From: Cryomorphaceae bacterium
GTDB taxonomy: Bacteria > Bacteroidota > Bacteroidia > Flavobacteriales > Schleiferiaceae
Assembly (NCBI GenBank): GCA_003566715.1
Contig: PXCF01000139.1
Span: 18,275 to 82,274, forward strand
Direction of reading: 5' to 3'
DNA length: 64,000 nucleotides
The notes beneath the pieces are model-generated. The model did not search any database, had not been told where the DNA came from, and saw nothing but the letters and a program-made list of their open reading frames with translations. Both the position numbers and the translations under genes were made by a program. Numbering within the stretch: position 1 is the stretch's first letter; each line of letters begins with the position of its first letter. Shown here in pieces: positions 4,085 through 33,545 of this stretch.

Positions 4085-5410
4085 TTATTGCAATATCGTT
4101 ACACCAAGTGTAAACATGGTACGGTTGCGCTCGTTCATAAATGGCGTTGGTATAAGGCCTTGATCGAAGACAAACTCTCCAGTTGTACTTTGGAAGTTGA
4201 CCAAGCTCATGTTGATGCCAAATTTTTTGGTTTGGTAGCCAATGCCTCCATGAATTCCGGTTACGTTGGTAGCGTTGAAGCGCTCGCTGTATCCACTGGT
4301 GGTTAAAGAGTAGCCGCCACGAAGGAAAAAGCTGCCAAGGCGAATTTCTGTTCCGGCTCGGAGGTGGGGCATAGGCGTCAAGTCATTTCTGATGTCTTCA
4401 CGTAGATTGTCTTTTATTGATTGCTCCATATCTCGTCCTCCATAACGTGAGGTTCTTGGGTCAACAAAGTCGTAATCGATGCTAATAAAGCCAAACTTGT
4501 TAAATACATAGGCCATACCGGCGTTTAAGCGAGCGGCATTATATGCTGTATAGCGGTAGTTTGGATTAAAGCCTCTTTCTTCTTCTAACTCTTCGAAAAT
4601 CCCTCCATCTCGATAAATAAAATCAAATTCACCGTTAAAGGAATGTGCAGTTGGTGTTTGTGCGGAAACACCAATTCTAAGTGCCGGTATAGGACGATAA
4701 ATAACGCCAGCACGCGCGTTGATGCCAACGCCAGAAACATCAATCCCTTCAGCATATTCTACAAACCCTTGCTCAACTTCATTTACATCGCTAACGGACT
4801 GGTCATTGAAATAATTTTGTCTAAAGGTGGTAAACGGAACACCGATGCCAAAGCCATAATACCATTTATGACCTTCGTTAAAGCCAAAGGTTAGACCCAA
4901 TTCATGTTGTGTGCCAATGATCTCTCTACTTACTGAATCATTGTAAAAATCACCGGGCTCAAATATGTCGCCTTCCGGGTTCATTACAAAACCACGGCCG
5001 TTATAGCTCTCTCTAAAAGATGCGGTTTGATTAAACGTCAACGCAAATACCGAACTGCGGTTGCGTTCTTCGTTCATCATCCACGTTTTTCCAAAGTTGG
5101 TGATGGTGACACCTGCTTCATTGTTGTCGCCAATACGTTGGCCGTTAAAGCTTGTGGCATTGTTATGCGAAAATATGCCGAAGTGCACATCTACTTGCTC
5201 ACGGCGAAAAACCCCGACACCGGCCGGATTGATGTGAATGGAGGAGAAGTCATTGCCCAAGGCCGAAAAGGCTCCTCCTACGCCTGCGCTGCGTGCTGTG
5301 CCTAGATTTTGATGGCGATTCAAATGATGCATCTCCATGGCCGTTTGCCCCTTAAGTGTCATGGATTCAAACAAAAACAGGGCAATACCGATAAAGAAAT
5401 TTCTGCTCAT
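4085..5410 (-). CDS. Outer-membrane beta-barrel protein, FadL/TodX/PorV-like (putative hydrophobic-compound channel)
   Basis: It has a signal peptide, the N-terminal motif GTARSAGVGGAFSALGNDFSSIHINPAGVG, and alternating aromatic/Gly beta-strand patterns to the C-terminus. Confidence 0.45.
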   Translation of the reverse strand: MSRNFFIGIALFLFESMTLKGQTAMEMHHLNRHQNLGTARSAGVGGAFSALGNDFSSIHINPAGVGVFRREQVDVHFGIFSHNNATSFNGQRIGDNNEAGVTITNFGKTWMMNEERNRSSVFALTFNQTASFRESYNGRGFVMNPEGDIFEPGDFYNDSVSREIIGTQHELGLTFGFNEGHKWYYGFGIGVPFTTFRQNYFNDQSVSDVNEVEQGFVEYAEGIDVSGVGINARAGVIYRPIPALRIGVSAQTPTAHSFNGEFDFIYRDGGIFEELEEERGFNPNYRYTAYNAARLNAGMAYVFNKFGFISIDYDFVDPRTSRYGGRDMEQSIKDNLREDIRNDLTPMPHLRAGTEIRLGSFFLRGGYSLTTSGYSERFNATNVTGIHGGIGYQTKKFGINMSLVNFQSTTGEFVFDQGLIPTPFMNERNRTMFTLGVTILQ

Positions 5411-5477
5411 ATTGGTTGTTGTAGAAGATAAAAAAAAGCATTCCTCACATCTTAAGAGGAATGCTTACATACTCAAT

Positions 5478-6827
5478 TTATCGGCGTCCACCGCCGCGTG
5501 AAGGTGCAGATCTTACGCCACCACCGCTGCTGCGTGAAGGTGCAGAGCGCATGCTGCCACCACTGCTACGTGAAGGTGTGGAGCGGAAGCTTCCACCTCT
5601 TGAGGGAGTAGAGCGGCTTGGGCTAACACTTCTCGAAGGAGAAACACCTCTGCTTGGCATGCTGCGTGAAGGCGCAGTTCTGGCGGGGGGGCTGTAGTTG
5701 CTTCTCGATGGCGCACGTTGCATAGTCCCACGTGCAGGAGAAGTGTTTGAGCGTGCAGGTGCAGCGCGTCTAGAGCTGGGCGCAACGGAGCGTGAAGGTG
5801 TGGTTGCTCTTTGGTTTGCCGCACCGGGCGTTGTACGTGCCCCACCAGTACGTGCAGCAGGTTGCGTAGTTCTTGAAGGCGCGTGCATAAAATTGCTTCT
5901 TGAAGAAGCGGCACTGCGCTGCGATACGTTTGAACGGGCCAAGTCAGAATAGTTGGTGGCACGGTTAAACGAAGATCCTCTGGTAGCCGCTGTAGAGCGA
6001 TTGCTTGTCGTATTGCGCAAACTGCTAATTCCTTCGGTAGATGATCCTGCTGTACGTGCAGTTGAGCGCGAAGACTGAGCAACTCTGTTGCCTCCTGTAG
6101 CTGTAGAAGTACGCGTGTTGGCAGAAGCTCGGTCGCGAGCGATGGAAGTTGAACGAGGAGCGGTGTTTATCGTTCTGCGATTAACACCACCGGGCATGGT
6201 TCCGTATCCAGAACCTCCGGGACGCGTTCCCGCAAAGCTTGAGCGACGATTTGGGGCATAGTCGTATCCGGCACCCCACATGGCGCCATGACGGAAGCCG
6301 GCGTTATAGCTGTGCCAGCCCATACCCATACCCATACCCATGCCCCAAGGGCGCATCATGAATGGATCGTAGAAAAAGGGATCGTACATGGCCATCGGGT
6401 GCATCCCCCAAGGGTGCATCATGCCCCAAGGACGCATACCCATACCCATGCCCCATCCCATGCCCATGCCATAGCCCATGCCAAAGCTCCATCCGGGCTG
6501 CATGCCCCAACCCATTCCGGGGTGCATACCCATTCCCATTCCCATACCACCGTAGTAGTTATTTACGACCGCACCACCACCGGCAGCGCTACCACCTCTA
6601 GAGTCACGAGATTTTTCGCGAAAATCTGGGTCGTAGTAATCGTCGTAAATTTCACTTTGTTCGCCCGTATTATCGGCCTGCATAGAATTGGTCGCGCCAA
6701 CAGAAGGAGCCATGTAGCCGGGATTAAAATATATTCCATCGTCGTAGTGATTGGAAACAATGTCGCTTTTTGAACGACATCCAATCAAAACGATTCCTAA
6801 CATCATTATGGTCATCAATTTTTTCAT
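5478..6827 (-). CDS. Low-complexity lipoprotein with a Met/Gly/Trp/His-rich central block and a Ser/Arg/Thr/Pro/Ala-rich repeat tail. Function unknown.
   Basis: The ATG at 6827 gives [17 protein letters not shown], a lipobox with Cys. Downstream come [20 protein letters not shown]...[16 protein letters not shown], and the protein ends in tandem [12 protein letters not shown] units. Confidence 0.6.
5497..5690. repeat. Imperfect 30-36 nt tandem repeats inside the lipoprotein gene, encoding [16 protein letters not shown] 10-12-aa units
   Basis: CGTGAAGG(T/C)G recurs at 5497, 5533, 5569 and 5664, with a diverged copy near 5599. Confidence 0.8.
6313..6556. repeat. Microsatellite-like CATACC/CATGCC repeats encoding the (GM)n/W/H/P block
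   Basis: Runs such as catacccatacccatacccatgcc and cattcccattcccatacc, which translate on the minus strand to GMGMGMGW and similar. Confidence 0.85.
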
Positions 6828-6857
6828 CACTTGGGCATTTAAAAGGGTTGTTTCTCG

Positions 6858-6865
6858 TAGCTTTG
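6858..6865 (+). promoter_or_regulatory. Candidate Bacteroidota sigma-A -7 box (TAnnTTTG) for proS
   Basis: TAGCTTTG lies 45 nt upstream of the ATG at 6910. Confidence 0.3.
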
Positions 6866-6909
6866 CACTACGATTAATAAACTTCAAATTTCATACCAAT
6901 AAACCTCAT

Positions 6910-8385
6910 ATGGCTAAAGTTCTTGCAAGCAAAGATAGTGATTACGCGCAATGGTACAATGATTTAGTAATAAAAGCTGATCTGGCCGAAAACAGTGCGG
7001 TTCGTGGCAGTATGGTTATCAAACCATACGGTTATGCCATTTGGGAAAAAATGCAGGCTGAGTTAGATAGAATGTTCAAGGAAACCGGACATGTCAACGC
7101 CTATTTTCCACTTTTTATTCCCAAATCATTTTTTAGTAAAGAAGCCAGTCACGTAGAGGGTTTCGCCAAAGAGTGCGCGGTTGTTACCCACTATCGACTT
7201 AAAAACGACCCCAACGGAAAAGGCGTAATCGTAGACCCGGACGCCAAGCTGGAAGAAGAATTGATTGTTCGTCCTACGTCGGAAACCGTTATTTGGGATA
7301 CCTATCGCAAGTGGATACAGTCTTACCGTGATTTACCGATAAAGATTAACCAATGGGCCAATGTGGTGCGTTGGGAAATGCGAACCCGTTTGTTTTTGCG
7401 TACCGCAGAGTTTCTTTGGCAAGAAGGTCATACGGCACATGCCAGCAAGCAAGAAGCGATAGAAGAGGCAGAAACCATGCTGAATGTTTACGCTACCTTT
7501 TTAGAAAACTTCATGGCCATTCCGGTTCTGAAAGGCATTAAAACCGAATCCGAGCGTTTTGCTGGTGCGGTTGAAACTTACTGTGTTGAAGCGTTGATGC
7601 AAGACGGAAAGGCGCTTCAAGCCGGTACCTCGCATTTTTTAGGACAAAATTTTGCCAAGGCGTTTGATGTAACGTTCGCCACAAAAGAAGGTACCAATGA
7701 GTTGGTATGGGCTACTTCATGGGGCGTTTCTACCCGCTTGATTGGCGCACTCATCATGACGCACAGTGACAACAACGGCTTGGTTTTGCCTCCAAAATTG
7801 GCGCCACACCAGGTGGTTATCGTACCCATTTATCGCAAAGATGAAGAGTTTGAAAAGGTCGATGCCGCTGCGAAAGACATTGTACAGAAACTTAGAGCGG
7901 CAGGTATTTCGGTGCATTACGACAACCGAGATACCCATAAACCCGGATGGAAATTCAATGAATATGAATTGAAAGGGGTCCCGGTACGTATCGCCATTGG
8001 TCCGCGAGATTTGGAAAAGCAACAGGTAGAACTGGCGCGGCGTGATACCTTGGAGAAGTCTTTTCAGCCAATGGAAGGATTAACCGGAGTTATTGCCGAC
8101 ATACTCGAGCAAATGCAAACCAGTCTTCTGGAGCGTGCCCGTAAGCGCACCCAAGACGGAACTTATGCTGTTGATACGTGGGAAGAATTTACCGAAGCCG
8201 TTAAAAATCGCGGAGGGTTTATCAAGGCCCACTGGGATGGCACGGCAGAAACCGAGCGCATCATCAAGGAAAAAACTAAGGCCACCATTCGCTGCATCGA
8301 ATTAGATGCACCGGAGGAAGAAGGGGTATGTGTATTCAGCGGCAAGCCTTCCAAAAGAAGAGTCGTGTTTGCAAAGGCCTATTAG
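6910..8385 (+). CDS. proS: Proline--tRNA ligase (archaeal/eukaryote-like class IIa type, about 491 aa)
   Basis: [27 protein letters not shown]..., class II motifs and the C-terminal ...[10 protein letters not shown] used the ATG at 6910, because the 6751 extension overlaps the divergent lipoprotein gene. Confidence 0.92.
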
Positions 8386-8457: not shown

Positions 8458-9129
8458 ATGTCTGAAAATATTTCCTGTAACATCGATCTATACCGTTTAC
8501 TGACCAAAAAATCAGCCGCTAAGGTGGAGGTTTTTAATCACATAAAAACGGTGATGAGCCTTTGGAAGGAGGTGTTGGAAGAATTGGCCGGTGAACTGTC
8601 AACCAATGTTTGTGGCGAAAATGAAGACATCGTTATCGAATATTTAGACGTGTCAACATTTGAGGCTAAGTTAAGAGCCTCTGGGGATATATTGTTTTCT
8701 TACGTGCATACCAATGTCTTTGCTTTGGACGAAAGTCACTATTTACACCAGCACTCATATTTAAAAAAAAATGAACTAGAGGGCTACTTTGGTACGTTGA
8801 ATCTCTATTATTTCTTGGGCGATTCCATTAAATACAACCGCTTGAACGACAACGGTATTTTGATCGCTCGGGTGATGGTCAATAAGTCAGGTCTGTTCTT
8901 TGTTGAAGGCATTCGCGCCTTCGGAGAATTCGATCGATTTGATCATAAACGCCCATTGACCCGTGAGCGAATGAAAGTTTTGGCTGAGATGGCGTTAAAA
9001 CACATGCTCGACATCGACTTGACCTTGCCGCCCCGACAGCATGCACAGTTGTTAAGTGTTGGCGACATCCAGTCTTTGAGGCAGGAGTTGAGGTTTAATA
9101 CAACGCAGAGATTGGGATTTAGGAAGTAG
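8458..9129 (+). CDS. Hypothetical cytoplasmic protein
   Basis: A 223-aa ORF with normal composition. I recognise no signal peptide and no motif. Confidence 0.5.
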   Translation: MSENISCNIDLYRLLTKKSAAKVEVFNHIKTVMSLWKEVLEELAGELSTNVCGENEDIVIEYLDVSTFEAKLRASGDILFSYVHTNVFALDESHYLHQHSYLKKNELEGYFGTLNLYYFLGDSIKYNRLNDNGILIARVMVNKSGLFFVEGIRAFGEFDRFDHKRPLTRERMKVLAEMALKHMLDIDLTLPPRQHAQLLSVGDIQSLRQELRFNTTQRLGFRK

Positions 9130-10242: not shown

Positions 10243-11328
10243 TTAAACACTTGCTTTGGCCGCATCCACACGTGCTTGAGCAACTTCAAGTGCTGCTTGG
10301 TGTGTGGTGATGTTTTTGGTTTCTGCGTGGGTGAAAATTTCCAAAGTGGTATCGTATATTTTCTCGGTTCTTCTTAGTGATTCGGCGCGATCGTATTTGG
10401 CAATTTCAGAATATACGTTGATTAAACCTCCGGCGTTGATCAGGAAGTCGGGGGCATATAAAATGCTGCGCTCTGCCAATGCTTTGCCGTGAATGTTTTC
10501 GTCTTTCAATTGATTGTTGGCCGCACCGGCAATGATGCTACAGCGAAAGCGATCTAAGCTTTCATCGTTTACCGTAGCGCCTAGTGCACAGGGAGCGTAA
10601 ACGTCCACATCCGCATCCGCGTAGTGGCCTTCATAGACTTTAGCGCCATATTCGTTGACGGCCATAGCAATGCGGTCTTGGTGGATGTCTTGAATGTATA
10701 CCTCCATACCGGCCTCGGTGAGGTGTTTAACCAATGTAATTCCAACGTTGCCTATACCTTGAACAAGCACTTTACGTCCTTCTAAGTTGTCGCTGCCCCA
10801 CTTGTATTTCGCCGACGCTTTGATGCCCATATAGGTGCCGTAAGCAGTTACCGGAGAAGGGTCGCCGCTGCCTCCCATTTCCACTGGTATGCCGGTGACA
10901 TGCTTGGTTTCTTTCACTACGTGTTCGATGTCTTTGGTGGTAATCCCCACATCTTCTGCGGTGATGTATGATCCGTTCAGACGATCGACCATGCGACCAA
11001 AGGCACGCATCATGGCTTCGGTTTTTTGGGTGCGACTATCACCGATGATCACCGCTTTGCCTCCTCCGAGATTTAAGCCAGAGATGGCTGCTTTAAACGT
11101 CATTCCTCTAGACAGACGAAGGACATCGTTAAGCGCTTCCGCTTCGTTGTTGTAAGCCCACATTCTGGTGCCGCCTAAAGCAGGCCCGAGTACAGTACTG
11201 TGAACACCGATGATGGCTTTAAGGCCACTTTCTTTGTCGTGACAAAAAACGACTTGTTCGTGATCTTTAAAAGAGGGGTTTGAAAATACCAGAGGTTGAA
11301 CGTCAACGGCGGAAGTCGAATGATTCAT
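10243..11328 (-). CDS. Leucine (Glu/Leu/Phe/Val family) dehydrogenase
   Basis: GPALGGTRMW, the catalytic-Lys region GGGKAVIIGD, and the NAD-binding GIGNVG. Confidence 0.85.
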   Translation of the reverse strand: MNHSTSAVDVQPLVFSNPSFKDHEQVVFCHDKESGLKAIIGVHSTVLGPALGGTRMWAYNNEAEALNDVLRLSRGMTFKAAISGLNLGGGKAVIIGDSRTQKTEAMMRAFGRMVDRLNGSYITAEDVGITTKDIEHVVKETKHVTGIPVEMGGSGDPSPVTAYGTYMGIKASAKYKWGSDNLEGRKVLVQGIGNVGITLVKHLTEAGMEVYIQDIHQDRIAMAVNEYGAKVYEGHYADADVDVYAPCALGATVNDESLDRFRCSIIAGAANNQLKDENIHGKALAERSILYAPDFLINAGGLINVYSEIAKYDRAESLRRTEKIYDTTLEIFTHAETKNITTHQAALEVAQARVDAAKASV

Positions 11329-27407: not shown

Positions 27408-27893
27408 TTAAAAACGCATGATCAAACCAAGCCCATTGCGGGCAAAAGACACGTTGATTTCACTTCTATTTCTAAAAGTATTACTTTGAAGTCCCGAGTT
27501 GTAAGTGTCTACTGCTTGCCTTGCCTTTCTACTATAACTGGCGCTAATTGGAAACGAAGCAATCATTAATCCAGCACCCAAACCACCAACGGCCCAGTTT
27601 GGTTCACCACCACCTAATGCAGCGCCAACCTGCCAGCCAAAAATAAACGCCCCCACGATGCTAGTGGCATTGGATAAATTACGTCGTGTTCGCGCAGAAC
27701 GCATTTGATCATAAGCCATGGGGTTGGTTTTCATTATTTTAATGGCTCTGGTCAATGATATTTTTTTACCGTCTATATAATACTCAGGACTGCCGAGAGA
27801 GCTTTCCATGGTGATTGAGTCCGCAACCGTTTGTGCAAAGGAAAATGTTGTAGAAAAAAGGAGAAAAGCGAAAATGATAACAGTTTTACTCAT
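27408..27893 (-). CDS. Hypothetical secreted/outer-membrane protein
   Basis: Signal peptide MSKTVIIFAFLLFSTTFSFAQ, a Gly-rich hydrophobic segment, and a terminal Phe. Confidence 0.5.
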   Translation of the reverse strand: MSKTVIIFAFLLFSTTFSFAQTVADSITMESSLGSPEYYIDGKKISLTRAIKIMKTNPMAYDQMRSARTRRNLSNATSIVGAFIFGWQVGAALGGGEPNWAVGGLGAGLMIASFPISASYSRKARQAVDTYNSGLQSNTFRNRSEINVSFARNGLGLIMRF

Positions 27894-27908
27894 AGCTAAT
27901 GATGGGTC

Positions 27909-28376
27909 TTACATGGGCAAGTATACGCCAATGGCATAAGTTAATATTACTGGAGGGACACTTAAATCTTGAGGAAAAATGGGGCCTGTGTCGATGATCC
28001 GTCCCAATCCAATTTGTGCAGTAAACCATTTTTTTCCTCGATACACGTAATTTGATGACACGATGTTTTGCACAAATGCATCGCCAGTTCCCTGGTTCCA
28101 GTACTGAAGCGATAAAAATGAGCTTCTAATGGATGGCTTTAAGTGATAATTAATCCCGGCGCCAAAAGAGATCAGACCAACACCTAGTTGAAGCCCCAAT
28201 AAATCGTTTAAAAGAAACTCAAAATCAGCCCCAAGCAAAGCGCCACCACCTTTTAGAACACCAATGGTTACACAGGCTTTTTCTTCATCCGGCACATAAC
28301 CTCCGTACTGCGAATAGATTAAGTTGGTGCTGGTTAAGAAACAAATGGTTAGTAGCGTTTTTAATTTAGTATACAT
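27909..28376 (-). CDS. Hypothetical small outer-membrane beta-barrel protein
   Basis: Signal peptide ending in SQ, with an alternating Gly/aromatic strand pattern. Confidence 0.45.
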   Translation of the reverse strand: MYTKLKTLLTICFLTSTNLIYSQYGGYVPDEEKACVTIGVLKGGGALLGADFEFLLNDLLGLQLGVGLISFGAGINYHLKPSIRSSFLSLQYWNQGTGDAFVQNIVSSNYVYRGKKWFTAQIGLGRIIDTGPIFPQDLSVPPVILTYAIGVYLPM

Positions 28377-28594
28377 GTTTCATATTTGTGACGAAGAAAA
28401 GAATGATTACATCTAATGATTGCAAATATATTATAAAACGTTTTTGAAAAGCAAAAAGATTGAGGCAAGACTGTGCGGAACGCTTTTTCCAAATATTTAG
28501 AATAGTAAACGACTTTTTATTTTTTATGTTGAGTACCTTTACTTCAGAAAAAAAAGGATCAAACCTTTCACCATTTCAACAATACCATTCCTGC

Positions 28595-29464
28595 ATGAAT
28601 ACACTTTTACACGGCTTTCAGCATCTAAGACTCCATTTTTCGCTGTTCTTGCTGCCAGTTTTCTTATTTGCGCTGGCAATGTCTGACGCGCCTTTTCACG
28701 AGCAGACCATGTTGTTGTTTGTTCTTTTGCACCTGGTGATTTATCCCTCAAGCAACGCGTATAACAGCACACAAGATAGAGATGAAGGCAGCATTGGTGG
28801 ACTGAAAAATCCACCGCCCATACCCAACTCATTATCGTTAGTAACGCTGATCATGGATTTACTGGCGCTTTCTTTGGTTTGGGTTTTTATCAATGTTACG
28901 GTTTTTGCCTTACTGCTTCTTTACATCCTGGCATCTCGGGCGTATAGCTATCGCGGCATTCGCTTGAAACAGTACCCCATCGTAGGGTATCTGGTGGTAG
29001 TGACTTTACAGGGGGGGCTGGTATTTCTTGCCACGTCACTAACGGCTAGCGGGGTGTCTCTGTTGGACTTGTCTGTCAACCAATGGCTGGGCGCACTGGC
29101 CGCAACGGTGATGATTGGTGGGGGATATCCCATTACGCAGATCTACCAGCACGAACAAGACCGCCGCGATGGGGTCAATACCATGAGTATGTTGCTCGGA
29201 ATACGGGGAACACTGTTGTACGCCTCTTCGCTTTTTGGATTATTGACGGCGATGATGGTCTATCTTTGGTGGAGCCAACCAGTCGTTCCCATGCTATTCG
29301 TGGCCATAACCTCACCAACGCTGCTCTTTTTTCTTTATTGGATGAAGCGTGTGTGGGTGAACAATTCAGCGGCCAATTACGATAATACTATGAAGATGAA
29401 TTACATCTCCACCGCCACACTGAACGTGTTTTTTGTCGCCCTTTTACTTATCACGCACGCCTGA
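28595..29464 (+). CDS. UbiA-family aromatic prenyltransferase
   Basis: Polytopic membrane protein with Asp-rich motifs NSTQDRDEG and QHEQDRRDG. The start is ambiguous: ATG at 28595 (MNTLLHGFQHLRL) or ATG at 28526. Confidence 0.7.
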   Translation: MNTLLHGFQHLRLHFSLFLLPVFLFALAMSDAPFHEQTMLLFVLLHLVIYPSSNAYNSTQDRDEGSIGGLKNPPPIPNSLSLVTLIMDLLALSLVWVFINVTVFALLLLYILASRAYSYRGIRLKQYPIVGYLVVVTLQGGLVFLATSLTASGVSLLDLSVNQWLGALAATVMIGGGYPITQIYQHEQDRRDGVNTMSMLLGIRGTLLYASSLFGLLTAMMVYLWWSQPVVPMLFVAITSPTLLFFLYWMKRVWVNNSAANYDNTMKMNYISTATLNVFFVALLLITHA

Positions 29465-29467
29465 CTT

Positions 29468-30556
29468 ATGAACAGTTTCATCACGTCAATTGGTACCGCC
29501 GTACCGGAATACCAATATTCACTCGAATCCTTCATCGCCTGGGCTGAGTCAACGCATCAATTGCCGGTCTCTAAGCGCAAGTTGCAGTTTCTCGCCAAAG
29601 ATGCGGGTATCGACACCAAGCATACGGTGGTTGACGATTTCTCTTATAACGGGGAGGGCAGTCTCTACCAATGGAATAGTGAAGGCTACACCGATCCGTT
29701 AACGACCAAACGCTTGGAAAACTTTCTTCCCTTGGCTACCAAGCTCGGGGTAAAGGCAGCAGAAGATTGCCTCAAAAGCAGAGGTATAGAGACCTCCGAC
29801 ATCACCCATGTCATTGCAGTGAGTTGCACCGGGATTCAGGCGCCTGGATTAGAGATAGCCCTGCATAAGGCCTTGGCACTATCCAATCAAGTGGAGCGCA
29901 TGGCCGTAAACTTTTTGGGCTGCTACGCGGCCTTTCACGCCTTTAAAATGGCCGATTACATTTGTCGCGCCAATCCTTCGAGCAAGGTGTTGATTGTAAG
30001 TGTCGAACTTTGTTCCCTGCATTTTCGCAACGACGATACCAACGACAACTTATTATCCACCATTCTCTTTTCTGATGGTGCCGCTGCCGCCATCGTTGAA
30101 GGCAAAAAACCTCATAAAAGGACGTCATTTCAGTGGCGTACGTTTCATTCGGCACTCATTCGTGAAGGGGAAAGCGACATGGGCTGGCACATTGGCAATG
30201 GTGGTTTTGAAATGACATTAAGCAGCCGAGTTTCTCAGCATATTGGCAATCACATTCGCACAGTCTATCAGGAGTTGTTAGACAAATGCGCCATCAACGC
30301 GACCGACGTAAAAGGTTACGCCATTCACCCCGGCGGGAAGAATATACTGCGTGCCTTTGCCGATGCCATCGGGTGTGGTGAACATGATTTACACCCTTCG
30401 TTTGACGTGATGCGTCGGTACGGCAATATGTCTTCGGCGACAATTATGTTTGTGCTCAAGGATATCCTTCACGGCGATTACCCCGACGGCCATTACTACT
30501 CGGCGGCTTTTGGCCCCGGACTCACGGTGGAAAGCGGAATGTTTGTGCGCTCATGA
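29468..30556 (+). CDS. Type III polyketide synthase (chalcone/stilbene synthase family; SrsA/ArsB-like)
   Basis: Catalytic triad contexts AVSCTGIQAPG (Cys), AIHPGGKNIL (His) and YGNMSSATIMFVL (Asn), 362 aa. Confidence 0.9.
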   Translation: MNSFITSIGTAVPEYQYSLESFIAWAESTHQLPVSKRKLQFLAKDAGIDTKHTVVDDFSYNGEGSLYQWNSEGYTDPLTTKRLENFLPLATKLGVKAAEDCLKSRGIETSDITHVIAVSCTGIQAPGLEIALHKALALSNQVERMAVNFLGCYAAFHAFKMADYICRANPSSKVLIVSVELCSLHFRNDDTNDNLLSTILFSDGAAAAIVEGKKPHKRTSFQWRTFHSALIREGESDMGWHIGNGGFEMTLSSRVSQHIGNHIRTVYQELLDKCAINATDVKGYAIHPGGKNILRAFADAIGCGEHDLHPSFDVMRRYGNMSSATIMFVLKDILHGDYPDGHYYSAAFGPGLTVESGMFVRS

Positions 30557-31266
30557 ATTTCCGACAGCGCTCATACGAAAAAGAACGGATGGATGCTCCC
30601 GATTTGCATCCCTCGGAGTTCCACAACAACCTCAAGGAAATCGTCCTTATCAATCGCTATCTCGGCGGCGCATCGGTTACCGTTCAAGGCATCAACGCAC
30701 TCGTAAAAGCGCATGATTTACAAGACCTACACATCACCGATATTGGCTCCGGTGCCGGGGATATTTTTCCCTATTTAGACAAAAAACTGCATCAATACAG
30801 TCCGCACTTTACCGCGGTAGACATCCAGTCGGAGGCGCAGACCTACTTGGAAAAGCATTACCCCGCCTACAAAGATAAAGTGGACTGGATCATCGACGAT
30901 TACAACCGGGTGTTTGAAAAAGAAAACGCCACCGATATCGTTACGGCCAGTTTGTTTTGCCACCATTTAAACGACGAAGAGCTGGTCGACTTTCTTCGTG
31001 GTGCCGTGCGCTATGCCCGTGTCGGTGTGGTCATCAACGACCTGCACCGTCATCCTTTTGCCTACCACAGCATACGTTTACTCACCAAATGGTTTTCAAA
31101 TTCCGCGTTCACTAAACACGACGCACCGCTATCTGTCAGACGTGGATTTACAGCCAGTGAATGGTCCGAGTATCTATCCGAGGCCGAAATTACCAATGCT
31201 TCCATAACGTGGAAATGGGCTTTTCGGCATTTGGTGGTGATACCTACAAACAACCAATTGTTATGA
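30553..31266 (+). CDS. SAM-dependent methyltransferase (SrsB-like position)
   Basis: Motif ITDIGSGAGDIF. The start overlaps the PKS stop (ATGA). Confidence 0.75.
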   Translation: MNFRQRSYEKERMDAPDLHPSEFHNNLKEIVLINRYLGGASVTVQGINALVKAHDLQDLHITDIGSGAGDIFPYLDKKLHQYSPHFTAVDIQSEAQTYLEKHYPAYKDKVDWIIDDYNRVFEKENATDIVTASLFCHHLNDEELVDFLRGAVRYARVGVVINDLHRHPFAYHSIRLLTKWFSNSAFTKHDAPLSVRRGFTASEWSEYLSEAEITNASITWKWAFRHLVVIPTNNQLL

Positions 31267-32363
31267 AACCACCTGTTGTCATCATCGGCGCGGGATTGTC
31301 GGGATTAAGCTTGGCTATACTGCTGCGGCGTTTGCAAGTCCCAGTAACGATCTTAGAGAAGGACATCTATCCCCGACAAAAAGTCTGTGGCGAATACATC
31401 TCCGTCGAATCGGAGGCATTTGTGCGTTCACTCGGGGTGGACACCACTCATTTACCGCACATCAACACCCTTCATTTGACGTCCAATCGGGGGCGAGAAG
31501 CGCAGGTGAAATTGAAGACCGGTGGTTTTGGCATCAGTCGCTGGACGTTGGATCATCAACTGGCGCAAATCGCCTGTGCGGAAGGTGCCGACGTGCAATT
31601 TGGCGTCACCGTTCGCAACGTAGAAGGCAACACCGTGCGTACCGTCAAGCACGGCGATATGGAAGCCTCTCACGTCATTGGCGCTTACGGAAAAAGCAAC
31701 CGCTTGAGTGAAATTGAACTCCCTAAAAACACCACCCATTACGTGGGTATCAAATACCACGTGAAAAGTGATGCGCCGCAAGACGTGATAGAGATGCACG
31801 TTTTCAAAGGTGGTTACTGTGGTTTTTCTAAAATCGAAGATGACTTATATTGTCTTTGCTACCTGGCCGATGCCGCGCCTTTGAAATCCTTTGGCGGTGA
31901 TATCGACGCCTTTGAAAAAGAGCACTTGAGTTTGAACCCCAAATTAAAAACCCGATTTGCGCAGGTGGAGAAAGTGGGTGAGCGGGCGGCCACCTCACAG
32001 TTTCACTTTGGTTCCTACCGCGGCCATGTCAACAACCAACTGCTCGTCGGCGACGCTTCGGGCTTTATTCCGCCCATTACGGGCAACGGGATGAGTTTGG
32101 CCTTTCGCTCCGCCGCCAATACAGCGCCCCTTCTGGCGGATGTTTGGCACGGAAAGTTGGAAGAACAAGCGCTTTATAAAATACAGCAAAATTACGTGGA
32201 TACCTACTTGCAAAAGCGCATTTCCAAGGGCGTATTTCTGCAAAACCTGCTCTTAAAGCAAAATTGGCTGAGCGATGCGGTTTTGTTTGCCGGGTTGAAT
32301 CATCTGCCGTTTTTGGGACAAGTGTTGGCGGATACAGCGGTGGGGGAAGAGTTTAGAATTTAG
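31263..32363 (+). CDS. FAD-dependent oxidoreductase / aromatic-ring hydroxylase-like flavoprotein (SrsC-like position)
   Basis: VVIIGAGLSGLSLA dinucleotide fold and the GDASGFIPPITGNGM motif. The ATG at 31263 overlaps the upstream stop (ATGA). Confidence 0.8.
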   Translation: MKPPVVIIGAGLSGLSLAILLRRLQVPVTILEKDIYPRQKVCGEYISVESEAFVRSLGVDTTHLPHINTLHLTSNRGREAQVKLKTGGFGISRWTLDHQLAQIACAEGADVQFGVTVRNVEGNTVRTVKHGDMEASHVIGAYGKSNRLSEIELPKNTTHYVGIKYHVKSDAPQDVIEMHVFKGGYCGFSKIEDDLYCLCYLADAAPLKSFGGDIDAFEKEHLSLNPKLKTRFAQVEKVGERAATSQFHFGSYRGHVNNQLLVGDASGFIPPITGNGMSLAFRSAANTAPLLADVWHGKLEEQALYKIQQNYVDTYLQKRISKGVFLQNLLLKQNWLSDAVLFAGLNHLPFLGQVLADTAVGEEFRI

Positions 32364-32384
32364 AATTGAAAATGCAGAATTACC

Positions 32385-32409
32385 GTAGAGACGCAATATT
32401 TTGCGTCTA
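32385..32409 (+). repeat. GTAGAGACGCA-family hairpin (3' arm truncated)
   Basis: gtagagacgcaa-tatt-ttgcgtcta, with an 8-bp agacgcaa/ttgcgtct stem. Confidence 0.7.
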
Positions 32410-32425
32410 ATGAATAACCGCTGCC

Positions 32426-32473
32426 TATAGAGATGCGCACGGCTGTAGAGACGCACGGCAGTGCGTCTCTACA
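32426..32473 (+). repeat. GTAGAGACGCA-family element: an 18-nt half-site duplication followed by a perfect 13-bp hairpin
   Basis: tatagagatgcgcacggc is followed by tgtagagacgcac-ggca-gtgcgtctctaca. Confidence 0.8.
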
Positions 32474-32503
32474 TTCGCCAATAACTGTCCAATACCCCTA
32501 TAG

Positions 32504-32532
32504 CAAAACCCCGTAGGGGTGATCGTGATTAT
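32504..32532 (+). repeat. CCCCGTAGGGG-hairpin repeat, copy 1
   Basis: caaaaccccgtaggggtgatcgtgattat, to be compared with copy 2. Confidence 0.7.
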
Positions 32533-32559
32533 AGAAAATATGTGTTCACCTATTCCCCA

Positions 32560-32588
32560 CGAAACCCCGTTGGGGTGGCCGTAATTGT
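32560..32588 (+). repeat. CCCCGTTGGGG-hairpin repeat, copy 2
   Basis: cgaaaccccgttggggtggccgtaattgt is a direct repeat of copy 1 at about 80% identity. Each copy holds a 4-5 bp GC hairpin. Confidence 0.7.
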
Positions 32589-32795
32589 GCAAAAAAATTG
32601 TTTCGGTTGAAATCATCCACACCCCTAATTGGGTTTGCTGTTGTTGAGGTTTTGGCGTTTTATTCTCTCACACATACATGACCATCAATACAAATATAAG
32701 GCGCTAAATAATTTACCCGATAAAAACTCCTCTGCGTGAATACCTTTGCGTCACTTTAGGCACATTAATTGAAAGGTTCATAGAAAACATATCCC

Positions 32796-33545
32796 ATGAG
32801 AATTCTTATTTTGATTGCAATATTGACCGTTGGTTCGCTACATGCGCAAATGATCAATGCCAATACTGAGGTGTTTCACCGCGACGATAAAAGCAAGGTG
32901 GCATTTAAGGTGAATAAAGAGATCGAGGTGTATTCTCAACCCAATGACAAAAGCGGATGGTTTACGGTGAGAATGATTGTATTGGTGGAAAAGGCATCTG
33001 TCAGCGAAGAAGATTTGCTTGCCTCGGAGAGTTTTCTGTTTGATTTAGACGGAGAGAAGATTGGCGCTACGGTAGGGGAAATGTCCTTGCTGGAAAAATC
33101 CAAAGCGCAGGGAAGAAAGAATAAAGACAAGTGGGTGGCGGTCGTCGAAGGACAGGTGTTTAAGACGAAGTTTGTCCGCGGTACCGTACCGGAAATGACC
33201 TTAGAAAACATTTTTACATCGGGAAAAAAAGGAATGATGGCTCGTCAAGTGGACGACTACATCGAAGAGCATCGGTTGATTCGCGAAGATGTTGGCGAAT
33301 TTTCTTTCTACCCCATATACCGTGAAAACCATTCACTCAAGCGCGATAAAGATTTTAAGATTTTACTGGTGTACAAAAAAGGCGGTTCATTTTACGGCAT
33401 CGTTACCCATGATTTTGCTTTAGACATCCCCGCAAAAACCATCAAAGAAGACGCCCCCATCTACATGTACTTTCCGGTCATGAAAGCCAACGATCGCGAT
33501 CTGAATGAGATTTTTGAGCTCGTGTTTGAGTTTATTGCACTTTAG
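32796..33545 (+). CDS. Hypothetical secreted protein
   Basis: Signal peptide MRILILIAILTVGSLHAQ. I recognise no domain. Confidence 0.5.
   Translation: MRILILIAILTVGSLHAQMINANTEVFHRDDKSKVAFKVNKEIEVYSQPNDKSGWFTVRMIVLVEKASVSEEDLLASESFLFDLDGEKIGATVGEMSLLEKSKAQGRKNKDKWVAVVEGQVFKTKFVRGTVPEMTLENIFTSGKKGMMARQVDDYIEEHRLIREDVGEFSFYPIYRENHSLKRDKDFKILLVYKKGGSFYGIVTHDFALDIPAKTIKEDAPIYMYFPVMKANDRDLNEIFELVFEFIAL

Follow-up and report, generated by a model that had tools for sequence, protein, structure and literature searches.

Four co-directional genes at positions 28595-32363 on the forward strand of the window, a 64,000-nt stretch of a Cryomorphaceae bacterium contig, form a candidate operon that probably directs the synthesis of a membrane phenolic lipid of the alkylresorcinol or alkyl-methoxyhydroquinone type bearing an added prenyl group. 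We assign a probability of about 0.6 to this reading, in which the operon would be the functional Bacteroidota counterpart of the agqABCD cluster of Actinoplanes missouriensis. The genes encode a UbiA-family prenyltransferase, a type III polyketide synthase (PKS), a methyltransferase (MT) and a flavoprotein. In the proposed pathway, the PKS would use a fatty acyl thioester primer and three malonyl-CoA to form a cyclised 5-alkylresorcinol, a product suggested by the genomic context, and the PRK06202-like class I MT would then methylate the ring, with O-methylation the more likely position. The HidB-like FAD enzyme, of the geranylgeranyl reductase (GGR)/halogenase-fold branch, would hydroxylate the ring to give a methoxy-hydroquinone, as homology and co-occurrence suggest, and the integral-membrane UbiA-like enzyme would transfer a prenyl group from a prenyl diphosphate to the phenolic ring or to one ring hydroxyl.

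The close packing described in the initial annotation was confirmed at every junction. The prenyltransferase stop codon (TGA, 29462-29464) is separated from the PKS ATG at 29468 by 3 nt, and ATGA overlaps join the PKS gene to the MT gene (30553-30556) and the MT gene to the FAD gene (31263-31266). Judged by comparative gene order, this packing is not a product of chance, because dozens of other genomes carry the four families side by side. The prenyltransferase gene had been taken to begin at the upstream ATG at 28526, which would give 312 aa. The start is most likely 28595 (289 aa), because homologues of the first ORF span 285-295 aa and the first residue of its closest named homologue, a Lunatimonas protein, aligns with window residue M24; two gene callers picked 28595 too. 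A search upstream of the candidate operon detected no Bacteroidetes-type -7 box (TAnnTTTG), and a sigma-70 promoter scan gave background level only. Downstream, a repeat search located a perfect 13-bp stem with a 4-nt loop (32444-32473, forward strand, 81 nt past the FAD stop) that may at best be a candidate terminator, since it has no following T-tract; it was not among the matches of a consensus terminator scan. The branched-chain 2-oxo acid E1 gene (372-2498) and the Leu-type dehydrogenase gene (10243-11328) had been put forward as a source of starter units. That link is disfavoured, as both genes lie 18-28 kb from the operon behind unrelated housekeeping genes and outside the conserved neighbourhood.

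Conservation was evaluated by a pattern scan of species-representative genomes for PKS relatives, which returned at least 598 confirmed stretches. The neighbourhoods examined were the best 80 of these, nearly all with Bacteroidota titles (Cytophagales, Sphingobacteriales, Chitinophagales, Cryomorphaceae). Unbiased clustering of neighbouring ORFs at these 80 loci recovered the PKS at 80, the MT at 60, the FAD protein at 49 and the UbiA protein at 46, and the next family at 16; by this clustering, the four are the sole recurrent families among the best 80 of at least 598 loci. With tblastn on the same best 80, an MT gene adjoining the PKS was found at 64, the FAD gene at 52 and the UbiA gene at 47, and at 43 the UbiA gene lay directly upstream of the PKS gene, with 8 pairs co-directional (5-69 nt apart) and 35 divergent (62-299 nt apart). 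All four genes occur together at 22 of the 52 loci from the best 80 that are flanked on each side by at least 5 kb; the four-gene block is recurrent in Bacteroidota. A natural UbiA-PKS fusion was also identified: six 652-aa proteins, 97-99% identical and from separate assemblies of one Dyadobacter lineage (for example WP_149244224.1 of Dyadobacter sp. 32), each contain a complete UbiA domain and a complete PKS. Because the adjacency is conserved and this fusion exists, the comparative sequence evidence establishes the UbiA enzyme as functionally part of the PKS operon, and bears out the earlier proposal that the genes, UbiA included, form a compact operon in which the product of a type III PKS is tailored into a phenolic lipid. 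The fusion further suggests that the PKS works at the membrane beside the prenyltransferase.

By analogy, the addition of a prenyltransferase to a PKS, MT and hydroxylase set is not new in kind, because agqABCD has already been characterised in an actinomycete. Papers citing the original work describe that cluster as a type III PKS, a flavin-dependent monooxygenase, a methyltransferase and a UbiA-like prenyltransferase, which together produce alkyl-O-dihydrogeranyl-methoxyhydroquinones; the prenyltransferase, studied in vitro, is an O-prenyltransferase (Awakawa 2011, ChemBioChem 12:439, cited in PMC7692728, PMC10896814 and PMC4044012). Both agqABCD and the window hold the same four enzyme classes in a small cluster, with a membrane UbiA-like prenyltransferase that in Agq acts on a polyketide phenol, but the likeness is at the enzyme-family level only, and the two differ in phylum and gene order. 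Reports also exist of srs-like operons with a UbiA gene nearby in Jiangella (divergently encoded), Gephyromycinifex and Micromonospora. These precedents speak against treating UbiA as an uncharacterised addition to an srs-like set. Ring prenylation, the outcome proposed in the initial annotation, is likewise not to be taken as established, the sole characterised precedent being O-prenylation. Literature searches found no product reported for the Bacteroidota version of the cluster, in agreement with the earlier statement on this point. The srsABC cluster of Streptomyces griseus resembles the window in logic, with a type III PKS, a methyltransferase and a hydroxylase that make membrane phenolic lipids; its alkylresorcinol is converted to a methyl ether and then to an alkylquinone, and the system gives beta-lactam tolerance. 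Unlike the window, that cluster lacks a UbiA gene. The MT beside one srs-like PKS was annotated in one report as an isoprenylcysteine carboxyl methyltransferase, which would differ in fold from the class I MT of the window.

The four domain assignments made earlier all held, with Pfam scores above the gathering thresholds (PF01040, PF00195/PF02797, Methyltransf_25 and FAD_binding_3), and the SAM and flavoprotein GxGxxG and GD motifs named with them were present on translation. The MT (30553-31266, forward strand, 237 aa) is a class I SAM-dependent enzyme with motif I (DIGSGAGD) at 30739-30762. It scores 39.3 bits with Methyltransf_25, and matches NCBIfam PRK06202 over its full length at 126 bits, below the cut-off of 243. 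The FAD-dependent oxidoreductase (31263-32363, forward strand, 366 aa; FAD_binding_3, 55.2 bits) falls in the GGR/halogenase-like branch of group A flavoproteins and carries GAGLSG at 31287-31304, an invariant CGE at 31386-31394, GDASGFIPPITGNGM at 32049-32093 and the motif GDASGF.

Both tailoring enzymes have relatives in operons of the hid type. The MT-FAD-PKS arrangement occurs in 58 planctomycetes (mtr-fdo-t3pks) and in cyanobacterial hidABC (hierridin B/C, Cyanobium); these pathways have no prenyltransferase, their products need a ring hydroxyl, and the operon members tested yield alkylresorcinols (PMC6836626, PMC10896814). One MT-FAD-PKS operon on a plasmid of Paludisphaera borealis, known from its genes alone and arranged as described in PMC10896814, encodes a PKS 35% identical to that of the window (E 1e-67), a full-length MT homologue (E 2e-11) and an FAD protein of 27% identity (E 2e-14) that has the motifs PRxKVCG, GGYxG and GDAxGxxxPxTGxGM in common with ours. 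The window likewise carries adjacent MT, FAD and PKS genes with MT and FAD proteins homologous to those of Paludisphaera, but in the order (UbiA)-PKS-MT-FAD rather than MT-FAD-PKS and at identities of 23-35%. Given this homology of the MT and the flavoprotein to their counterparts in a planctomycete operon with the hierridin (hidABC) arrangement, ring hydroxylation is a likelier role for the FAD protein than prenyl reduction, an analogy to be read with the knowledge that the hydroxylase role of the HidB-type flavoprotein is itself putative and that co-expression of the Gimesia fdo gave no assignable product.

The same pathway could instead employ the flavoprotein as a GGR/MenJ-type prenyl-chain reductase that would saturate one or more double bonds of the chain added by the UbiA enzyme (compare the dihydrogeranyl moiety in the Agq products), leaving the cluster without ring hydroxylation, which we regard as unlikely though worth weighing. 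The best NCBIfam model of the FAD protein is GG-red-SF (TIGR02032), and the models for MenJ and DGGGPL reductase also matched, but the TIGR02032 score of 89.4 bits lies under the curated cut-off of 158.8. The cysteine of the CGE motif (C42) is invariant as in GGRs, so the distant relationship to the GGR family is real; the structural search ranked GGR 3OZ2 among its best hits, and JGI names relatives of the protein 'menaquinone-9 beta-reductase'. These points are offset by genomic context. At 15 of the 52 well-bounded loci the FAD gene accompanies the PKS and MT genes with a UbiA gene absent within at least 5 kb, a homologue is found in the hid-type planctomycete operons that have no prenyltransferase, and in Deinococcus the corresponding slot of a PKS-MT-FAD set is held by a classical UbiH/PHBH-type enzyme, a bona fide aromatic-hydroxylase family. 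Foldseek searches with the AF2 model (pLDDT 93.6) and profile searches matched flavin halogenases, 3NIX, GGR, PqsL and PHBH at approximately 17% identity. The protein lacks the hallmarks of a flavin-dependent halogenase: the WxWxIP segment of Mpy16 (WVWQIP) aligns to GGYCGxSK, and across 38 homologues the E49-G87 interval contains no invariant Lys that could be the catalytic residue. Halogenases are still the best profile and structural matches of the protein.

The PKS (29468-30556, forward strand, 362 aa) is by sequence a type III enzyme of the CHS/STS superfamily, with 102.8 bits for Chal_sti_synt_N (PF00195) and 60 bits for Chal_sti_synt_C (PF02797) against a cut-off of 27, and has at least 7818 relatives at E<=1e-20 in a database of 5.8 billion proteins. 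The complete Cys/His/Asn set claimed for it stands, with one residue reassigned: C152 (NFLGCYAAF, codon 29921-29923), H287 (30326-30328) and N320 (30425-30427) align exactly with C175, H313 and N346 of Mycobacterium tuberculosis PKS18 and are invariant across 23 homologues. The 'SCTG' cysteine (C120) proposed as catalytic was rejected, since it is C152 that aligns with PKS18 C175. The MT and FAD partners, together with the closest solved relatives, Steely1 (2e-43), an Ectocarpus PKS (4b0n) and PKS18, suggest a putative alkylresorcinol synthase, which would cyclise a tetraketide built on a long-chain acyl starter by an aldol-type reaction. Formation of an alkylpyrone or another ring, so that the operon would yield a methylated, prenylated pyrone lipid, seems distinctly improbable. 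JGI annotates many relatives as alpha-pyrone synthases and the pyrone synthases PKS18 and PKS11 are among the closest solved relatives, but the best PDB match, Steely1, is no pyrone synthase, and all the characterised PKSs identified alongside an MT and an FAD enzyme (srs, hid, agq and four tested planctomycete enzymes) produce alkylresorcinols. Bacterial alkylresorcinol synthases such as SrsA and ArsC commonly release pyrones as well.

The prenyltransferase (28595-29464, forward strand) is a member of the UbiA superfamily with a clear polytopic, all-helical predicted fold: PF01040 scored 66.6 bits against a gathering cut-off of 34.2, and the AF2 model (pLDDT 95.6, 11 helices) was matched best in Foldseek by DGGGP synthase (6M31), AfUbiA (4TQ3/4), ApUbiA (4OD4/5) and UBIAD1 at TM 0.61-0.69; a sequence search of the PDB gave no match. 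Two UbiA-type Asp-rich motifs had been noted, of which the conserved polar and acidic residues hold up while the canonical NDxxDxxxD and DxxxD patterns do not. In homologue alignments, the first motif (NAYNSTQDRD, 28754-28783) has invariant N54, N57, D61 and D63 in the pattern N-x-x-N-x-x-x-D-x-D, and in the second, YPITQIYQHEQDRRD (29126-29170), Y178, P179, Q182, Y184, Q185, H186 and D189 are invariant and D192 is kept in at least 90%. NxxxDxD and DxxDG thus replace the canonical motifs, with acidic and polar residues kept at a different spacing, and with this alteration a different prenyl donor, or even a different chemistry, is conceivable. That the gene is instead a housekeeping MenA, or another enzyme of primary metabolism beside the PKS by accident, is scarcely credible: 1,4-dihydroxy-2-naphthoate octaprenyltransferase is the JGI name for many relatives, but no MenA or UbiA equivalog model in NCBIfam matched at E<=0.01 (the top match, PRK12884, reached 35 bits where the cut-off is 269), the family forms a small group of its own, its position directly upstream of the PKS at 43 of the best 80 of at least 598 loci spans several orders, and in Dyadobacter a single protein combines it with the PKS. 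In the plant cannabinoid and daurichromenic-acid pathways a type III PKS likewise makes an alkylresorcinol-type ring, which a membrane enzyme of the UbiA superfamily C-prenylates; those pathways differ in being eukaryotic, with a resorcylic-acid acceptor, no operon and a prenyltransferase of an unrelated clade. A plasmid search found no member of the UbiA subfamily of the window, and a search of 1.84 billion cluster representatives with its profile retrieved only 1008 at E<=1e-3, consistent with a distinct small subfamily.

The four genes at 28595-32363 on the + strand constitute a real, conserved biosynthetic operon, the Bacteroidota representative of a known kind of pathway in which the UbiA subfamily is the unusual component. 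The region reads as four ORFs in the same direction, and Pfam searches returned the four domain families named in the initial annotation: UbiA (66.6 bits), Chal_sti_synt_N and Chal_sti_synt_C (102.8 and 60 bits) for the type III polyketide synthase (PKS), and Methyltransf_25 and FAD_binding_3 for the methyltransferase (MT) and FAD flavoprotein. The tight packing described there was confirmed at all three junctions, with the UbiA stop codon TGA at 29462-29464, the PKS ATG at 29468, and ATGA overlaps of PKS with MT (30553-30556) and of MT with FAD (31263-31266). The start proposed for the first gene, 28526, most likely has to be moved to 28595, as gene callers place it there (289 aa) or later, homologues of the protein are 285-295 aa long, and the Lunatimonas homologue begins at exactly the residue aligned to M24 of the 28526 reading. 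The cluster stretch is 100% identical in contig SKVZ01000103.1 of the MAG assembly GCA_007129165.1, and Lunatimonas is the closest named source of the UbiA, PKS and FAD proteins among the matches listed (61-63% identity).

Conservation of the block across Bacteroidota, which the initial annotation had proposed to survey, was evaluated by scanning a single genome for each GTDB species with an alignment-derived pattern, and this gave at least 598 confirmed stretches. Nearly all of the best 80 carry Bacteroidota titles (Cytophagales, Sphingobacteriales, Chitinophagales, Cryomorphaceae). Label-free clustering of all their ORFs of at least 90 aa found only four recurrent families, PKS (80 loci), MT (60), FAD (49) and UbiA (46); the fifth-ranked neighbour family occurs in 16/80 and is lineage-specific. 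Searching the same best 80 loci with tblastn located MT in 64, FAD in 52 and UbiA in 47. The UbiA gene lies immediately 5' of the PKS gene in 43 of these 80, co-directionally as in the window in 8 of the 43 pairs (gaps of 5-69 nt) and divergently in the other 35 (62-299 nt). Among the 52 of the best 80 loci that are flanked by 5 kb or more on each side, the module recurs with all four genes in 22, while 15, including all Hymenobacter and Pontibacter loci, have PKS, MT and FAD without UbiA; PKS with UbiA and MT (4/52), with UbiA only (3/52), with MT only (2/52) and PKS alone (6/52) make up the remainder. By these gene-set and orientation counts, the fully collinear, overlapping order in the window is thus a minority form of a common module.

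The UbiA-like protein is a small, distinct branch of the UbiA superfamily and not a housekeeping quinone enzyme, since it matched neither the MenA nor the UbiA equivalog model of NCBIfam, no PDB chain was found at E<=1 with its sequence or with a 23-member profile, its predicted fold is that of UbiA, and only 1008 proteins in 1.84 billion cluster representatives matched its profile at E<=1e-3 (365 at E<=1e-30). The best 150 of those 1008 matches, from a search aimed beyond Bacteroidota, are all strong family members. The highest NCBIfam score, 35 bits, was to an archaeal-type prenyltransferase model. An AlphaFold model built with 32 homologues in the alignment (pLDDT 95.6) resembles DGGGP synthase, AfUbiA, ApUbiA and UBIAD1 at TM 0.61-0.69 and 16-18% identity. 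Homologue alignments show that the two Asp-rich motifs noted earlier are conserved but not canonical: the first is kept as N54-x-x-N57-x-x-x-D61-x-D63 and the second as Y178-P-x-x-Q-x-Y-Q-H-x-x-D189-x-x-D192-G, with a conserved basic segment, YSYRGIRLK, between them. Several relatives in this subfamily (P0446, P0450, P0451, P0452 and P0497) are 490-560 aa long, and at their C-terminus have an apparently soluble domain of ~210 aa that matches no Pfam family.

The PKS has a complete and conserved catalytic triad, as first proposed, although the SCTG cysteine is not part of it. HMMER alignment places C152 (NFLGCYAAF), H287 (AIHPGG) and N320 (YGNMSSA) on residues 175, 313 and 346 of M. tuberculosis PKS18, the established catalytic triad of that enzyme, and all three are invariant across 23 homologues. 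C120 of SCTG is likewise invariant, yet aligns to the region of CHS Thr132. Joint action of the UbiA-like enzyme and the PKS is independently supported by a natural fusion of the two, found among the matches listed. This 652-aa protein from Dyadobacter sp. 32 (WP_149244224.1, encoded on a 7.1-Mb contig) aligns over residues 11-289 with the UbiA protein of the window (40% identity) and over residues 293-649 with its PKS (37%), and Pfam detects both domains. The fusion was seen, again among the matches listed, in six versions 97-99% identical to one another from separate assemblies.

The enzyme set of an srsABC-like cluster (Streptomyces griseus) with an added prenyltransferase stands as annotated, but the combination is not new. 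The agqABCD cluster of Actinoplanes missouriensis is described as joining a type III PKS to a monooxygenase, methyltransferase and UbiA-like prenyltransferase (PMC7692728, PMC10896814, PMC4044012). Its products are alkyl-O-dihydrogeranyl-methoxyhydroquinones, and in vitro work addressed the O-prenyltransferase activity of the prenyltransferase (Awakawa 2011, via the same three sources). Compared by description, agqABCD and the window cluster have these four enzyme classes in common. An adjoining UbiA gene has also been noted beside srs-like operons in Gephyromycinifex, Micromonospora and Jiangella, in the last of which it is divergently encoded. Within Bacteroidota, genome papers list unassigned antiSMASH 'type III PKS' regions, e.g. 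in Reichenbachiella, and our literature searches for a characterised product of any Bacteroidota type III PKS returned none, in agreement with the initial annotation.

A tblastn search of plasmids with the window PKS extended the comparison to annotated PKS/MT/FAD trios in other phyla; the same plasmids gave no match to the UbiA-like protein. In the planctomycete Paludisphaera borealis the order is MT-FAD-PKS, an arrangement reported in 58 planctomycetes as well as in cyanobacterial hidABC (hierridin), with alkylresorcinols as the products of the PKSs tested (PMC10896814). Judged by alignment, the window MT and flavoprotein are homologous to the Paludisphaera proteins of this hid-type operon, the MT over its full length (E 2e-11) and the FAD protein at E 2e-14 with PRPKVCG, GGYVG and GDATGYVEPFTGEGM in common. 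Deinococcus megaplasmids (e.g. locus L085, Deinococcus proteolyticus pDEIPR01, 5001-7970) have PKS-MT-FAD in the order seen in the window, but the FAD slot holds a classical UbiH/PHBH-type hydroxylase with GDAAHVVSPIGGQGMN, unlike the HidB-like type of the window, a non-orthologous replacement in the same slot. The best plasmid match, 43% identical, is a gammaproteobacterial PKS (L084, Psychrobacter urativorans plasmid 5, NZ_CP012711.1, 5001-7824) with convergent FAD and MT genes beside it and IS630 and recombinase genes close by, a context that suggests that PKS, MT and FAD have spread horizontally as a set. Two Streptomyces plasmid PKS matches were inspected; one has a different gene set and the other is unannotated.

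If the srs, hid and agq pathways are a guide, the PKS, MT and FAD enzymes would most likely yield an alkyl-methoxy-hydroquinone, to which the UbiA-like enzyme would afterwards attach a prenyl chain. In this scheme we infer a resorcinol as PKS product, the sequence of the steps, the hydroxylating role of the FAD enzyme, and the acceptor atom and length of the prenyl chain. For the MT, a class I SAM enzyme, PRK06202 is the best curated match (126 bits, full length, under the cut-off). The family membership of the flavoprotein is ambiguous by sequence: among NCBIfam models it scores best with the geranylgeranyl-reductase (GGR) family (89 bits, where the cut-off is 158.8), followed by QhpG, and it keeps the invariant Cys of PRQKVCGE, as GGRs do. 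Halogenases, C. hutchinsonii 3NIX, GGR 3OZ2, PqsL and PHBH are almost equally good structural matches to its AF2 model (pLDDT 93.6), so that hydroxylase and reductase are inseparable by fold search, every group A flavoprotein class standing at ~17% identity. The flavoprotein might accordingly reduce the prenyl chain instead of hydroxylating the ring. We consider this unlikely and favour ring hydroxylation, because the HidB-type family is present in pathways without a prenyl group, the FAD gene lacks a nearby UbiA gene in 15/52 loci (of the best 80 of at least 598), and a true aromatic hydroxylase occupies the equivalent slot in Deinococcus; it retains some weight because the function of HidB is itself only putative. 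A halogenase, suggested by the best matches of a 38-sequence profile (Mpy16, PltA, ChlB4 and Bmp2, up to 5.7e-24) and by the unknown chlorinase of hierridin C, was rejected, as GGYCGxSK replaces the halogenase WxWxIP and the homologues have no invariant Lys at the place expected for the catalytic one.

The product could conceivably, though we think it improbable, be a C-prenylated, methylated and hydroxylated quinol or quinone with a PKS-built rather than chorismate-derived ring, which in many aerobic Bacteroidota would work alongside menaquinone as a second membrane redox carrier or as a lipid antioxidant. Polyketide quinones have been proposed for mycobacteria and would be a parallel, but here the isoprenoid tail would come from a dedicated, non-canonical UbiA subfamily. 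The initial annotation had also pointed to a 2-oxo acid dehydrogenase E1 (372-2498; fused alpha-beta, 708 aa, E1_dh, Transket_pyr and Transketolase_C) and a Glu/Leu/Phe/Val-type dehydrogenase (10243-11328) as possible starter suppliers. A cluster-specific link was rejected: both are housekeeping-type, lie 18-28 kb off beyond genes for ProRS, NusB, an ABC transporter, O-antigen ligase-like proteins and others, and are not conserved neighbours in the best 80 related loci.

Few small biosynthetic gene sets are as widely conserved as this module in environmental Bacteroidota (Cytophagales, Sphingobacteriales, Chitinophagales, Cryomorphaceae). If its product is a prenylated phenolic lipid, this would be an unrecognised membrane lipid class for the phylum, relevant to how cells withstand envelope stress (the analogy is that of srs lipids with beta-lactam tolerance in Streptomyces) and perhaps to redox chemistry too. 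With altered metal-binding motifs and a natural PKS fusion, the UbiA subfamily offers a tractable model for passage of a lipid phenol from a soluble PKS to a membrane prenyltransferase. As the enzyme logic has characterised precedent, no general principle is altered; a redox-active prenylquinone in respiration would, if true, give the finding greater weight.

The G+C content of 28595-32363 is 0.493, against 0.452 +/- 0.023 in other large genes sampled, and GC3 of the cluster genes is 0.56-0.58 against 0.485 +/- 0.043; this excess of ~2 SD is slight and not decisive for horizontal transfer. Sizeable ORFs without a Pfam match lie at 4085-5410, 5478-6887, 8458-9129, 27408-28376 and 32796-33545, and ORFs of this kind include two small opposite-strand ones immediately upstream of the cluster. 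The 249-aa ORF directly downstream, also without a Pfam match, is absent from the best 80 of at least 598 related loci, and its family is not among their recurrent neighbours. Sigma-70 promoter and terminator scans gave nothing above background, and the Bacteroidetes -7 motif TAnnTTTG does not occur in 28377-28600. The 432-nt intergenic region 3' of the FAD gene (32364-32795) is rich in short hairpins, including one at 32444-32473 whose 13-bp stem is perfect and whose loop has 4 nt (TGTAGAGACGCAC-GGCA-GTGCGTCTCTACA), a related copy at 32385-32408, and two AAACCCCGTnGGGGTG hairpins at 32506 and 32562, which may represent a terminator or a REP-like element. At <=1 mismatch, the window contains 5 copies of the 11-mer GTAGAGACGCA, against 0.58 expected.
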